Below are positions 29,118 to 50,546 of a DNA stretch of 64,000 nt, one piece after another (position 1 is the stretch's first letter; every line of letters starts with the position of its first letter). Position numbers and translations under genes: made by a program. This DNA comes from Dehalococcoidia bacterium (lineage in GTDB: Bacteria > Chloroflexota > Dehalococcoidia > UBA2979), in contig OZ253555.1 of NCBI GenBank assembly GCA_965262725.1, forward strand, positions 3,008,001 through 3,072,000. The letters are read 5' to 3'. The notes beneath the pieces are model-generated. The model had not been told where the DNA came from. It did not search any database and saw only the letters and a program-made list of their open reading frames with translations.

Positions 29118-29193
29118 GGGCCTGTAGCTCAGCTGGGAGAGCGCCACACTGGCAGTGTGGAGGTCAGGGGTTCGAGCCCCCTCAGGTCCACCA
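29118..29193 (+). tRNA. tRNA-Ala (anticodon GGC)
   Basis: 76-nt cloverleaf; acceptor GGGCCTG/CAGGTCC with G3:U70, anticodon arm CCACA-CTGGCAG-TGTGG, TTCGA T-loop, encoded CCA. Confidence 0.97.
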
Positions 29194-46984: not shown

Positions 46985-48202
46985 TCAGTCGGTGCTCAGG
47001 AGGCGGAAGGTGATCGCCGCTGAGACCGGCCGGAACTGGCGGCTCAGGCTGATCCCCTGATGCTGGAAGTGCGAGCCCGATCCCGTCTCCCCGTAGAGCT
47101 GCTCCGGTTCCCGCGCCATCCGCTCATAGGCGAGGCGTGCTATAGGCTGCCCGTCCTCCAGCAGGAACGGAATGTCGTGCGCGCGGACCTCGAGCACCGC
47201 CCTGGTCCCGTAGAGCTCGGGCCCGAAGCCGAATCCCGGGTCGAAGAACCCCGCGTAGTGCGTCCGCAGTTCCCCGTTCGTCGGATCGTAGGCCGCCATC
47301 TCCGCGGCGAGCGACGGGGGGATGCGGACGTACTCCCGCGAGACCAGGAGGTAGAAGTAGTCGGGATCGAGTACGAGGCGCCCACTGCTCTCCGCCACGA
47401 CCGGCTCCCAGTAGTGGAGGGGGTCGTACGCCTGGGTCACCGAGAGATCGAGCAGCGGCGCGTGATGCCGGGCCCGCCAGCCGACCTGATAGCCCCCGGA
47501 CGGCAGGCTCACGCTGAGCAGGATGCCCCGCGAGCCGATCCTCGGCTCCGCGACCGCGCGGCGCCGCTTCCGCGAGTCTGCGTCCGGGGTGAAGAGCAGC
47601 GGCTCACGCTCGTGCTCCGCCGCGATCTCGCCGGGGGAGAGTGGCTCGCTGGCGGTGGTGAGCCGGAGCTGCGCCAAGCATAGCCCGGCGCGGAGGTTCA
47701 CGGTGAAGGTGTTCGAGTAGAGCTCAAGCCAGAGCGGGCCCTCGTAGCCGTCGTCGATCTCGTCGAACTGGCTGCCGCGGTCGGTGAGCACCCGCGTGAA
47801 GATGTCGAGCCTCCCGGTCGAGCTGCGGGGATTCGCGCGGGCGCGCACGCCCGGCGGGAGCCTCAGCCGCTCCGCGAGCTGGATGAGGTACGGGATGCGC
47901 GGATCCAGCACCACGCCGCCTGACTGCCCGAGGTCGATCTCCGGACCCACCTGGAGCTCGGAGAGCCGATCGCGGACCCGCGCCCCGCCCGGGAGGAAGC
48001 TGCTACGGAGGCGGTAGGCGCGGGCGCCGATGCGCAGGTCGAGGCTCGCCGGCTGGACCTGCTCGTCCCGGATGGCATGCGCGGCGCGGACGACTCCGTC
48101 CCGGATCGCGCCCCGGAGCATCCCCGCCGAGTAGACCCCGGCGCGCTCGCCCCCCTTCGGGGTTCCCGCCGTGCCGTCGGCCGTGCCGACCGTCGCCTGC
48201 AT
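46985..48202 (-). CDS. dcd: 2'-deoxycytidine 5'-triphosphate deaminase (long, two-domain DCD type)
   Basis: QVQPASLDLR, ANPRSSTGRLDIFTR, GELRTHYAGFFDPGFG, VLEVRAHD. Confidence 0.9.
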   Translation of the reverse strand: MQATVGTADGTAGTPKGGERAGVYSAGMLRGAIRDGVVRAAHAIRDEQVQPASLDLRIGARAYRLRSSFLPGGARVRDRLSELQVGPEIDLGQSGGVVLDPRIPYLIQLAERLRLPPGVRARANPRSSTGRLDIFTRVLTDRGSQFDEIDDGYEGPLWLELYSNTFTVNLRAGLCLAQLRLTTASEPLSPGEIAAEHEREPLLFTPDADSRKRRRAVAEPRIGSRGILLSVSLPSGGYQVGWRARHHAPLLDLSVTQAYDPLHYWEPVVAESSGRLVLDPDYFYLLVSREYVRIPPSLAAEMAAYDPTNGELRTHYAGFFDPGFGFGPELYGTRAVLEVRAHDIPFLLEDGQPIARLAYERMAREPEQLYGETGSGSHFQHQGISLSRQFRPVSAAITFRLLSTD

Positions 48203-48395
48203 CCGCCCCGCCACTCCTCTCTCGCCCCCGCCGTGTGGGCGGGCTCCACGCACAGGCCCCATGGAGCCCATGGCGGACACGCTACGCGATCCCGCGCACC
48301 GGCGGCAGGGGAGATGCGAACCAAGTGCGAGAGGCGCCGCGCCCGGGCGTGCATGACCTGTGGAGAGCACGCCCCGCCGGGCGCAGCTCTCCCGT

Positions 48396-48848
48396 TCACT
48401 CCCCCGGCGCCTCCGCCCCCTGCGCCTCCCCGATCGCCGTCTCGAGAGGAGCTCCGTGATCGACCAGTGTCCGCACCTCCTCCATCGCCTCCAGAAGCGC
48501 CACCTCGAGGCCCGGCGTCTCGGCGATCGGTCGGAAGTAGGAGGCGGGGCCCAGTGCCATCTGATCGGAGGCAACGCGCTCCACGAGTTCGGTCGCGAGT
48601 GGCGGCTCGATGATGCGCGTCCCGGGCGCGAGATCGCGTGCGAGCTGGGCGACTGTCTCGACGCGGAGTGCCAGCGCCGCGCCCACGTGTACGACGAGGC
48701 GCCGCCGGAACTGATCGCCGTGCCGCGCGGTGGGGACGATGACCATCGTCTCGGCGCAGGGATCCTCCCGGTAGCGGGAGGCCGCGCGCTCGACCAGCCG
48801 CTCTGCCTTCGCCGACGCCGCGGGACCGGTGACGAGGGTGGCCGTCAC
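48396..48848 (-). pseudogene. Stand-alone N-terminal fragment paralogous to the AddB-like gene at 31563
   Basis: Shares VPTARHGDQFRRRL and FxPIAExPGL with 31563..34490; ends after 150 aa. Confidence 0.8.
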
Positions 48849-50546
48849 GACGCGCCCGCCTTCCGGGGATGCTCCCGGGCGGTTCGGGGCACCCAGATGG
48901 CGGCGGTCTCATCCCCGTAGGGATCGGCCTCCCCACGCCGGTAGCAGAGGGCCGACCACGCGCACACGACGCCGTCGATCGCGTCCTCGTAGCGCTTGAG
49001 CACGCGGAGCGAGGGGATCTCCGCAGCGGCGGGGAGCGCAAGCGCGATCCCCCCCAGGCGCCCGCGGAGGCAACCCAGGATCGAGGCGAGCTCGGCGCGC
49101 AGCCTTCGGATGCGTTCGCGGATGCTGGCGCCGGGGTGGTAGCGCCCGCTTCTCTGCACCTTGTAGGGGAGCCGGTAGTTCGCGCCGGTGAGCGCGAGCA
49201 GGGTAGCGTGTAGGGTCAGGGGCTGGCGCGGTGCGAGCCGTAGGCGGTGGCGCATCAGTTCCAAGCCGGTTTCCCGGTGGTGCCCAACTCCACGGCCATA
49301 GCAGCGTCCGTCTCCAGCCCCTGCCACATCGAACCGGACGTGAGGTTCTCCCTCATCCGGCTCACCGATGCCCTTCACCAGATGGCATGCAGCGCTCCCC
49401 ACAACGTGGGTCGTGCCTTGGCCAGCCGGTACAGCATGTGCGGAGAGCCTCGAACCCTACCAAGTGGTTGCTAGCCCCGAGGGGCACTCACCAGTCCACA
49501 CCCCCAGCAACATGCACGGACAAAGTAGGGGTCCTTCCCATCACCGGCGGTTATGTTGTCCGTCCGGCTCCAGCGGTACTACGACCCCCTCCGCCACCCT
49601 TCCGGCTGGCTGTCCACTTCCCGGCTCTGACCGGTTATAGGACGCCTCGCTCCGACGCCCTCTCACAGGGTGCCGGGCCGGGGAGGGCTTCTCCGGTTCC
49701 CGTCGCTACCTTCCGTACGTTCCACGTCCCATACGCCGGGAGGTTTCTTGAGGCTGCATTCCAGGATCTTCACCTCGTCCATGGCCTTCGCCCTGACCAC
49801 CCGGGCTCGGCTCCTCCTTGGTCCTGTCAATAGACAGGCGAGTCTCACGGCGCGGCAGACTTCGCGTCATGCTGCGGACCGCACGTTTGCTCCCCCTCAT
49901 AGGGCTCTTGACGTCGGGCTTCGACGCAGACCGTTTCCCGTCCACGCCGCCGACCTGCTAACGGGCCTCCTGACAGTTACCCGTGCCGGACTCTCACCGG
50001 CTGGCAGCAACGAGCATGTCTCCGGACCGGTCACGTCATCACGTCACCACCCCTTCGACTTCCGGACGCACGCGGGTAGACCTCGATCAGAGCCGGGGTG
50101 CGGCCGCGGCCGGTGGCCGCGGTCGCGAGCGGGTAGCCGTGGGCGCCGAAGCCGGCGCGAAGCGAATCGGCGAGGGGGCCGGGCCGGACGGCGGAGGGGG
50201 AGTGCACGGAGGCACCGCGGGCACCGAAGGCGCGGGAGACGGCATCATCCGCCGGCCGCCTGGCGGTGACAGGCGAGGTGGCGAGCGGCATATCGACCGC
50301 GACGACCTCGACCGGGCCCGCCCCGAGCCCGCGGGCAGCGGCGAGCAACGCCCCCACATCGGCGCAGCCCGCGTCCGGCCGCACCTCCCAGTCGACGGGG
50401 GTACCCCCGGCGAGGGCGAGGAAGGAGCCGTAGCTCGGCGCGAGCGCGGCGCAACGCCAGCCGCCCTCGCCGTCTGCGACAAGCAGCGAGACGCCGCTCG
50501 GCCCGGTGGCCGTCCACGCTGCGTCGATTCCGAGCACGGCGGGCAT
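48845..50546 (-). CDS. DUF429 (RNase H-like predicted nuclease), split by a group II intron; exons 50546..50072 and 49209..48845, 279 aa when spliced
   Basis: LGIDAAW, VAVDMPL, EVYP|H joined across the intron, EDAIDGVVCAW, IWVP. Confidence 0.85.
49210..50071 (-). mobile_element. ORF-less group II intron (862 nt; IEP internally deleted)
   Basis: 5' GTGCG, domain V GAGCCGGATGAGGGAGAACCTCACGTCCGGTTC (49363..49331), domain VI with bulged A, 3' ...GACCCTAC; removal restores the host frame. Confidence 0.93.

Follow-up and report, generated by a model that had tools for sequence, protein, structure and literature searches.

A multicopy, ORF-less group II intron in the conserved E-x-x-P-H motif of a DUF429 gene from a Dehalococcoidia bacterium

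Background

How does an 862-nt insert come to lie inside an invariant motif of an otherwise intact bacterial gene, and what does this mean for the expression of that gene? The question is raised by a DUF429 gene found in a stretch of 64,000 nt (hereafter the window; assembly GCA_965262725.1, contig OZ253555.1, positions 3,008,001 to 3,072,000) of a Dehalococcoidia bacterium whose genome forms one contig of 3,674,403 bp with 70.6 % G+C. A previous reading of the letters and translations (the sequence-only reading) had claimed that the gene is interrupted in its EVYP/H motif (a slash marks the insertion point throughout) by a group II intron devoid of an open reading frame (ORF), and that this intron could serve as a splicing-controlled switch. 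In this work, we focused on the anatomy of the insert, hereafter called the mini, on its copies in the genome, on the RT-bearing introns (RT, reverse transcriptase) related to it and on the alleles of its host gene in relatives. We consider it very probable that the mini is a non-autonomous intron that entered DUF429 off target during a recent selfish burst, and that it is not an evolved regulator.

Results

The insert has the anatomy of an ORF-less group II intron

On the minus strand, the insert starts with GTGCG at 50071 and ends with ...GACCCTAC at 49210 (Table 1); these termini follow the group II rule of a 5' GUGYG and a 3' AY. The ends were fixed independently by the other copies in the genome, since the likeness among the 24 exact copies stops precisely at GTGCG and ...CTAC. 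Searching the whole window with Rfam covariance models gave group-II-D1D4-4 (102.8 bits for a gathering threshold of 49, E 7.8e-22) as the sole group II match at gathering thresholds. A permissive scan restricted to 49000-50300 (1.3 kb) further returned the full Intron_gpII model (RF00029, domains V and VI, model positions 1-77) at 49365..49210 with 37.5 bits and E 1.9e-5, this match terminating exactly on the proposed 3' splice site. Plastid models covering domain V alone matched 49363..49331, where the hairpin carries its AGC triad, reaching E 1.7e-4, and one compensatory pair was observed in this domain among related introns.

Domain VI was found as a long stem with the base GGCAGGGGCUGG / CCAGCCCCUG-A-CC, in which A49216 is bulged within a 12-bp basal stem, 7 nt from the 3' end. 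When the mini and five relatives were analysed with RNAalifold, the stem was kept in all six introns and the bulged A was present in each of them; eight pairs were changed on both sides, two of which adjoin the bulged A. The segment from domain V to the end gave a fold z-score of -4.67, and folding the full 862 nt by minimum free energy was uninformative (z -2.29). A domain VI made of a short hairpin right after domain V and followed by a 3' extension, as in B.c.I4, was also considered, RF00029 picking such a hairpin in the parent intron; it was rejected as the covariation backs the long stem.

No RVT_1 or GIIM match was obtained inside 49210..50071 in genome-wide searches, and the longest minus-strand ORF lying wholly inside the insert is 79 aa long, in line with the claim that 862 nt leave no room for an RT. 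The boundaries, core, domain V and bulged domain VI described by the sequence-only reading were thus all borne out, including by the covariance models that it had proposed as a check, and the insert is a genuine group II intron of the splicing type, i.e. an ORF-less, non-autonomous derivative.

Removing the insert restores an otherwise intact host gene

The DUF429 gene starts with the ATG at 50546. Its exon 1 (50546..50072, 475 nt) comprises 158 codons reading ...ALIEVYP and the first base of a His codon, and ends with ...GAG GTC TAC CCG C, whereas exon 2 (365 nt including the stop) starts with AC GCT ACC CTG at 49209 and extends down to the TGA at 48847..48845. Once joined, the exons form 840 nt, i.e. 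279 codons and a stop, with the frame running across the invariant E-x-x-P/H motif and the insert placed in phase C/AC, between the first and second bases of codon H159. Neither exon contains a stop or a frameshift. Exon 1 matched Pfam DUF429 (PF04250) at profile positions 21-78 with 26.4 bits (cut-off 23) and exon 2 at positions 150-210 with 19.1 bits, below the cut-off; no NCBIfam family matched either exon.

In order to identify orthologs, exon 1 was used as query against 40 relatives. Orthologs were found in four of them (three of the four genomes of the same genus and one of 20 other genomes of the same family), to which one weak match has to be added. All four are 68-82 % identical to the exons, measure 276-279 aa, read ...ALIEVYPH(A/V)SLL... 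and are uninterrupted, as the search for intron-less orthologs advised by the sequence-only reading was meant to reveal. In each, the first residue of exon 2 comes exactly one codon after the last residue of exon 1 and in the same frame. At the junction, the orthologs read ...GAGGTCTACCCGC/ACGC..., which matches the sequence on either side of the intron here with 0-1 change over 12 nt; the insertion therefore duplicated nothing and lost nothing. An alignment of these orthologs with 18 distant homologs from the phylum (24-33 % identity) showed E155, P158 and H159 to be invariant (22/22), and likewise D8, D85, D234 and D237.

DUF429 has been predicted to belong to the RNase H-like proteins, in the resolvase clade (PMC3985635). 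A structure model of an ortholog (predicted local distance difference test, pLDDT, 89) bore a weak likeness to RuvC and Ydc2 in Foldseek (best E 8.8e-3, template modelling score up to 0.53 on the target), no match being found at E <= 0.001, and a PDB sequence search with exon 1 gave nothing meaningful (best E 0.37). The weak resemblance of the modelled ortholog agrees with the published prediction, and the product is referred to here as a putative nuclease.

Directly downstream lies a 150-aa ORF whose start overlaps the DUF429 stop (Table 1). It is kept at this place in two of the four orthologous loci (62-66 % identity) and matches no Pfam or NCBIfam family. Since the insertion is in sense orientation within the best-conserved motif of a gene that is otherwise intact, expression of DUF429 and of this coupled ORF requires excision of the intron, be it by self-splicing or through a maturase acting in trans, a point on which the sequence-only reading holds.

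The mini is present in 28 copies and splits every gene for a closely related RT

The genome contains 27 further copies of the mini, 28 in all: 24 exact copies of 862 nt, one covering positions 1-857 and three interrupted by other insertions. Sixteen lie inside twintrons and 12 are ectopic. An uncurated BLAST census put the group II intron copies of this 3.67-Mb genome at about 57, i.e. 28 minis, 12 of an RT-bearing relative (parent A), three of a second one (parent B, 79 % related) and about 14 of a 1.9-kb family; a survey of intron-bearing bacterial genomes reported a mean of 5.3 and a maximum of 101 group II introns per genome (PMC8919778). Parent A is 2,074 nt long without its insert. Its identity to the mini amounts to 86 % over mini positions 1-551 and 89 % over positions 666-862, and the mini lacks about 1,223 nt of the parent ORF region. 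The 12 parent A copies hold twelve exact minis and one interrupted mini, and the parent B copies hold three.

Within the RT genes, the mini occupies the site ...TTCGAGTCGATACCGC/ACGAC, reading ...CFESIP/HDRL..., in phase C/AC. According to tblastn with the RT read across the junction, all genes encoding an A-type (12/12) or B-type (3/3) intron-encoded protein (IEP) are split at residue 197/198 (e.g. L049 800-3735, minus strand), and tblastn with the joined RT found no contiguous A/B-type RT gene in the genome (0/15), the sole other RT family being 37-41 % identical. The halves match TIGR04416 at positions 2-137 and 140-352 of 353. Removal of the inner mini restores the RT frame exactly, with YADD and the maturase (X) domain intact, and no endonuclease (En) domain was found in the A-type RT. 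The nearest solved structures are the group II intron RT/maturase 7uim, the GsI-IIC RT and the maturase RT 6me0 (E 6e-27 to 2.5e-22). Rfam confirmed the nested ribozymes of the twintrons.

Outside this genome, a same-genus genome carries a parent-type intron with an intact 472-aa RT frame and an empty homing site, and the RT reads through residue 197/198 unbroken in 6/6 related loci of public genomes (four titled Dehalococcoidia metagenome-assembled genomes, one Pseudonocardiaceae and one Frankiaceae). Searching the 40 relatives with the intron DNA, we recognised no ORF-less mini copy; four gave matches, and those examined were RT-type relatives.

The parent A introns are themselves all located antisense at the 3' end of the transposase gene of an insertion sequence (IS), adjoining its terminal repeat (12 sites, e.g. 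15735 onward), and five such IS sites are empty (996179, 1981712, 1986232, 2582090 and 2585242). Mobile elements are thus nested inside mobile elements, parent A in the IS and the mini in parent A. The possibility that the 12 parent A copies belong to one large duplicated block was rejected: their shared flanks, mostly about 25-40 nt upstream and about 42 nt downstream, correspond to the IS transposase 3' ends, of which the five sites above are empty.

Several nests display further arrangements. Two exact minis lie head to tail in one parent RT gene (L050 2001-3724, G000:C1:549500-551223), where the 3' neighbour of the upstream mini is the GTGCG of the next copy, which suggests a second insertion at the same intron-binding site (IBS) junction with a G at +1. 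Another locus (L051, G000:C1:732582-737446) forms a three-level nest: a parent B RT holds a mini, whose domain V loop holds a 1,923-nt element inserted between mini positions 722 and 723. This inner element starts with GTGCG, carries a 500-aa RT frame and a Rfam D1D4-6 match, and ends with ...CGCGAA, which is not a canonical AY, its 3' boundary being provisional. Related introns of another genome (L074, L079) carry an interruption at this same position. Two mini copies are disrupted by insertions, one of about 1.2 kb and one of about 2.6 kb, whose ends show short duplications.

Target recognition points to mimicry of the homing site

Over domain I (D1), the mini and parent A differ by scattered substitutions and by three blocks, i.e. 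the 228-233 loop, the 272-276 hairpin loop and an 11-nt indel near 312. The two block-differing loops are our candidates for the exon-binding sites EBS2 and EBS1, respectively. In the parent, the counterpart of the first loop is CGGAUA, which complements the parent's own target at -15..-10, and that of the second is CAAUU, which complements the last five bases of the same target. The corresponding pairings of the mini are listed in Table 1. All 12 distinct insertion sites pair with the EBS candidates; the IBS2 register is that of DUF429 in eight of them and is shifted by 1-2 nt in the other four.

The DUF429 site, ...ATCGAGGTCTACCCGC/ACGCT (...IEVYP/H...), shares phase C/AC, the A at +1 and the P/H codons with the homing site. 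The DNA encoding ...IEVYPH... resembles that encoding ...FESIPH..., hence an intron in the E-x-x-P-H motif. From these nucleotide comparisons, the position in a conserved motif appears to be explained by mimicry of the homing site and not by the function of the motif.

Ectopic copies follow the direction of replication

The genes surrounding the ectopic copies, judged by Pfam on the flanking frames, are given in Table 1. Copies in antisense orientation cannot be spliced from the host mRNA, so that the burst destroyed genes, which counts against a site-specific purpose; the insertions in the phosphotriesterase and histidine kinase genes are likely fresh knock-outs.

Cumulative GC skew reached its minimum at about 0.39 Mb and its maximum at about 2.51 Mb, placing the origin at about 0.39-0.49 Mb and the terminus at about 2.5 Mb. 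Eleven of the 12 ectopic copies, including that of DUF429, have their sense strand on the leading-strand sequence (i.e. the lagging-strand template), and the twelfth (2,536 kb, plus strand) falls where the skew curve plateaus, in the terminus zone. Among the twintron copies, 13/16 conform to this bias, one is ambiguous and two go against it. The minis change orientation at about 0.41-0.54 Mb and again at about 2.54-2.56 Mb, which coincide with the skew minimum and maximum. Group II introns lacking an En domain use replication-fork primers (PMC4424553), and the bias observed here suggests insertion at replication forks. As genes are mostly co-oriented with replication, the strand bias alone predicts an excess of sense insertions.

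An exactly joined form occurs in two public runs

Contigs of the public sequencing runs X12 and X17 join 49209 to 50072 exactly, skipping 49210..50071 (862 nt, GT..AC). The X12 contig (532 nt) shows no mismatch, its exons being 100 % identical, and the X17 contig (2,118 nt) shows 16 mismatches. Whether they stem from DNA or RNA, these joints confirm the intron boundaries by independent data. Depth in X12 is even, at 3.7-5.1, over the exons, the neighbouring gene and intergenic DNA, which points to DNA, and hence to a near-identical strain whose allele has the site empty. The insertion in DUF429 is probably recent and polymorphic.

Table 1. Features of the mini and its DUF429 host locus (window positions) and surroundings of the ectopic mini copies (genome positions)
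Feature	Position	Strand or orientation	Description
ORF-less group II intron (mini)	50071..49210	minus	862 nt, GTGCG...CTAC; one of 24 exact genome copies
D1 core	50003..49867	minus	Rfam group-II-D1D4-4, model positions 1-138 of 138
Domain V	49363..49331	minus	RF00029 and models of domain V only; GAGCCGG...CCGGUUC
Extended domain VI	49325..49214	minus	fold and covariation; bulged branch-point A at 49216
EBS2 candidate GACUCG	49839..49844 (intron 228-233)	minus	perfect 6-bp complement of homing-site -14..-9
EBS1 candidate GUGGU	49796..49800 (intron 272-276)	minus	hairpin loop; complements the last five bases of the homing site
IBS2 CGAGGT	50080..50085 (exon -14..-9)	minus	4 Watson-Crick pairs and 1 wobble of 6 with candidate EBS2
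IBS1 CCCGC	50072..50076 (exon -5..-1)	minus	4/5 positions pair with candidate EBS1
Downstream 150-aa ORF	48396..48848	minus	GTG start overlaps DUF429 stop (GTGA)
Ectopic copy	3,057 kb	sense (minus strand)	DUF429
Ectopic copy		sense	near 3' end of RNase_T/ExoX-like exonuclease gene
Ectopic copy		sense	inside gene of 1,550-aa leucine-rich repeat (LRR)/cadherin protein
Ectopic copy		sense	inside ABC-2-type permease gene (Pfam matches below gathering)
Ectopic copy		sense	in or just before 5' end of NAD kinase gene
Ectopic copy		sense	inside RT of a different intron family
Ectopic copy (L041)	G000:C1:537614-538475	antisense	phosphotriesterase gene, interrupted at about profile position 261 of 298
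Ectopic copy (L042)	G000:C1:1018206-1019067	antisense	histidine kinase gene, between HisKA and HATPase_c
Ectopic copy		antisense	adjoining DDE_3 transposase
Ectopic copies			two sites without recognisable gene
Ectopic copy			itself broken by an insertion

Other features of the window

From its sequence, the N-terminus of the 150-aa ORF gives the impression of a degenerate Walker A motif. A long open frame extends over window positions 46985-48574 on the minus strand; from its translation, the C-terminal part resembles a dCTP-deaminase-type protein, and its 5' part overlaps the 150-aa ORF, so that its true start is probably further downstream. A tRNA gene at 29118-29190 on the plus strand (Rfam tRNA, 64.9 bits) is the sole other Rfam match in the window.

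Discussion

A selfish burst and its off-target copy in DUF429

The sequence of events that we favour is the following. The mini would derive from an RT-bearing intron by the loss of about 1.2 kb of domain IV and would have multiplied recently to its present copy number, aided by the endonuclease-less RT/maturase of related introns, for which the A/B-type IEP is the presumed helper. Its EBS2 and EBS1 would be tuned to a site in the helper's own RT gene, and in all 15 of these genes it forms the inner intron of a twintron. The copy in DUF429 would then result from off-target retrotransposition into a look-alike site, in sense orientation and on the strand exposed as single-stranded DNA at the replication fork. 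Given the precision of the insertion, forward splicing would restore the DUF429 mRNA exactly, and the mini presumably splices in vivo at this weaker site. DUF429 and its translationally coupled neighbour would now depend on this splicing as a by-product of the burst.

Several observations weigh against this scenario and have to be set beside it. RF00029 misses its gathering score of 40 by 2.5 bits, owing to an insertion of about 100 nt in the domain VI loop. Assembly polishing could account for part of the perfect identity of the 24 copies. Runs X12 and X17 could be DNA or RNA and, if they were RNA, their joint would be spliced mRNA and not an empty allele; X19 and X20, which are RNA runs or guessed to be so, yielded nothing on the DUF429 exons and, from the intron, two stretches matching the mini without a difference (263 nt and 179 nt) as well as domain V-like fragments from relatives, DNA carry-over being possible. 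Pairing is weaker at DUF429 (IBS1 4/5, IBS2 5/6 including one wobble) than at the homing site (5/5 and 6/6), so that splicing there may be inefficient. Finally, the related IEP genes that the sequence-only reading had proposed to look for are indeed present, but all 15 are split by the same mini. The helper protein consequently arises only if the mini already splices, and the start of this cycle must require either basal self-splicing of the mini or cross-help from the 37-41 %-identical RT of the 1.9-kb family (about 14 copies).

The last two points lend themselves to another interpretation, i.e. that the mini no longer splices at DUF429, for want of a working maturase or owing to weak exon pairing, and that DUF429 and its coupled ORF are knocked out, the locus being an early pseudogene. 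The tolerance of the lineage to gene loss, as indicated by the broken phosphotriesterase and histidine kinase genes, and the presence of DUF429 in just 5/40 sampled relatives, which makes it look dispensable in the group, go in the same direction. We nevertheless hold such a dead insertion to be unlikely. The base-identical copies, at sites that fit the EBS/IBS pairing, imply that lariats formed and reverse-spliced very recently, hence an active ribozyme with a helper available; the RT frame is exactly restored with its YADD and X domain on removal of the inner intron, and the two DUF429 exons have kept both their open frame and their identity to the orthologs.

A bolder extension of the selfish burst is that the mini and its helper may form an obligate, self-reinforcing circuit, in which the maturase needs mini splicing and efficient mini splicing needs the maturase; such a circuit could be bistable and would gate at least five host genes. 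We regard it as doubtful. If true, the gated sense genes would be DUF429 with its coupled ORF, the RNase T/ExoX-like exonuclease, the 1,550-aa LRR/cadherin surface protein, the ABC-2 permease and probably NAD kinase, the loop could hold splicing-on and splicing-off states, and a bacterial genome would have been caught gaining a shared trans-acting splicing apparatus for the introns of its protein genes.

Less credible still is the adaptive switch suggested by the sequence-only reading, in which the intron would be retained for tying production of the putative nuclease and its partner to splicing activity. A sense, in-frame insertion in a catalytic-looking motif does make protein output strictly dependent on splicing, and several host genes share this dependence on one splicing machinery. 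However, the intron was found in 0/4 orthologous loci and the exons are exactly joined in X12 and X17; the site is explained by homing-site mimicry, and the orientation by the strand bias common to the ectopic copies; the identity of the copies leaves too little time for selection on that of DUF429; and the other 27 copies include gene-breaking antisense ones. What stands of the earlier proposal is the non-autonomous ribozyme needing help in trans, and what falls, with 28 copies in the genome, is the switch dedicated to this locus.

An assembly artefact, i.e. a repeat wrongly placed into DUF429, can practically be dismissed: the single-contig assembly is rich in near-identical repeats, both exon-intron junctions are known from the assembly and not from reads, and other runs hold the exons joined, but the insertion is base-precise, without duplication or loss relative to the orthologs, and agrees with the other copies in its EBS/IBS pairing and its strand, which a mis-join would not.

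Relation to known systems

Bacterial ORF-less introns occur in genomes with related IEPs (PMC4424553), and the system described here, ordinary in principle but a rich and fresh example, is closest to the ORF-less introns and twintrons of Thermosynechococcus. A literature search on group II introns of sponge or Chloroflexi symbionts brought up nothing relevant. The TeI3/TeI4 introns of T. elongatus (vestitus) BP-1 (Mohr, Ghanem & Lambowitz 2010, PMC2882425) number 28 related introns, most of them ORF-less as a result of one ORF deletion. They are mobilised in trans by related IEPs, as is presumed for the mini. As here, their EBS have diverged towards new targets, identical inner introns lie in IEP genes as twintrons, and insertion occurs into IS and other mobile elements (same source). 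The two systems differ in the place of the inner intron: in T. elongatus it lies between two start codons, so that the IEP can be made without inner splicing (PMC2882425), whereas here it splits the RT between TIGR04416 positions 137 and 140 of 353, which makes inner splicing obligatory, uninterrupted helpers being 0/15. They also differ in that at least five ectopic copies lie in sense orientation inside host protein genes here, with two more in antisense, whereas few introns of T. elongatus lie inside genes (PMC2882425). The host here, moreover, has a high-GC genome and is not a cyanobacterium.

The introns of Geobacillus recA and of the Azotobacter heat-shock operon encode an RT. Like the mini in DUF429, they are sense introns in functional host genes, whose expression needs splicing (cited in PMC4424553); the mini differs from them in being ORF-less, multi-copy and placed at a secondary look-alike site. 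In Methanosarcina acetivorans (Dai & Zimmerly 2003, via PMC4424553 and PMC2882425), ORF-less and RT-bearing introns home site-specifically into related introns and form multi-level nests, comparable with the three-level nest at L051. According to these two papers, those nests have no coding flanking exons, whereas the mini also lies in host protein-coding genes. Clostridium tetani C.te.I1 is likewise bacterial and ORF-less but, according to PMC4424553, is a self-splicing intron in a genome devoid of related IEPs, whereas here 15 related IEP genes are present and all are interrupted.

Conclusions

For annotation purposes, DUF429 is here better described as a split gene than as two fragments or a pseudogene, and the same applies to the 15 RT genes. 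At the level of the genome, a fresh burst is seen in which one non-autonomous intron has saturated its presumed helper's genes and spilled into host genes, in sense orientation (potentially spliceable) as well as in antisense (destructive). This bacterium thereby offers a natural system in which to study the spread of degenerate introns, the target mimicry that may place introns in conserved coding motifs, and the origin of shared splicing machinery.

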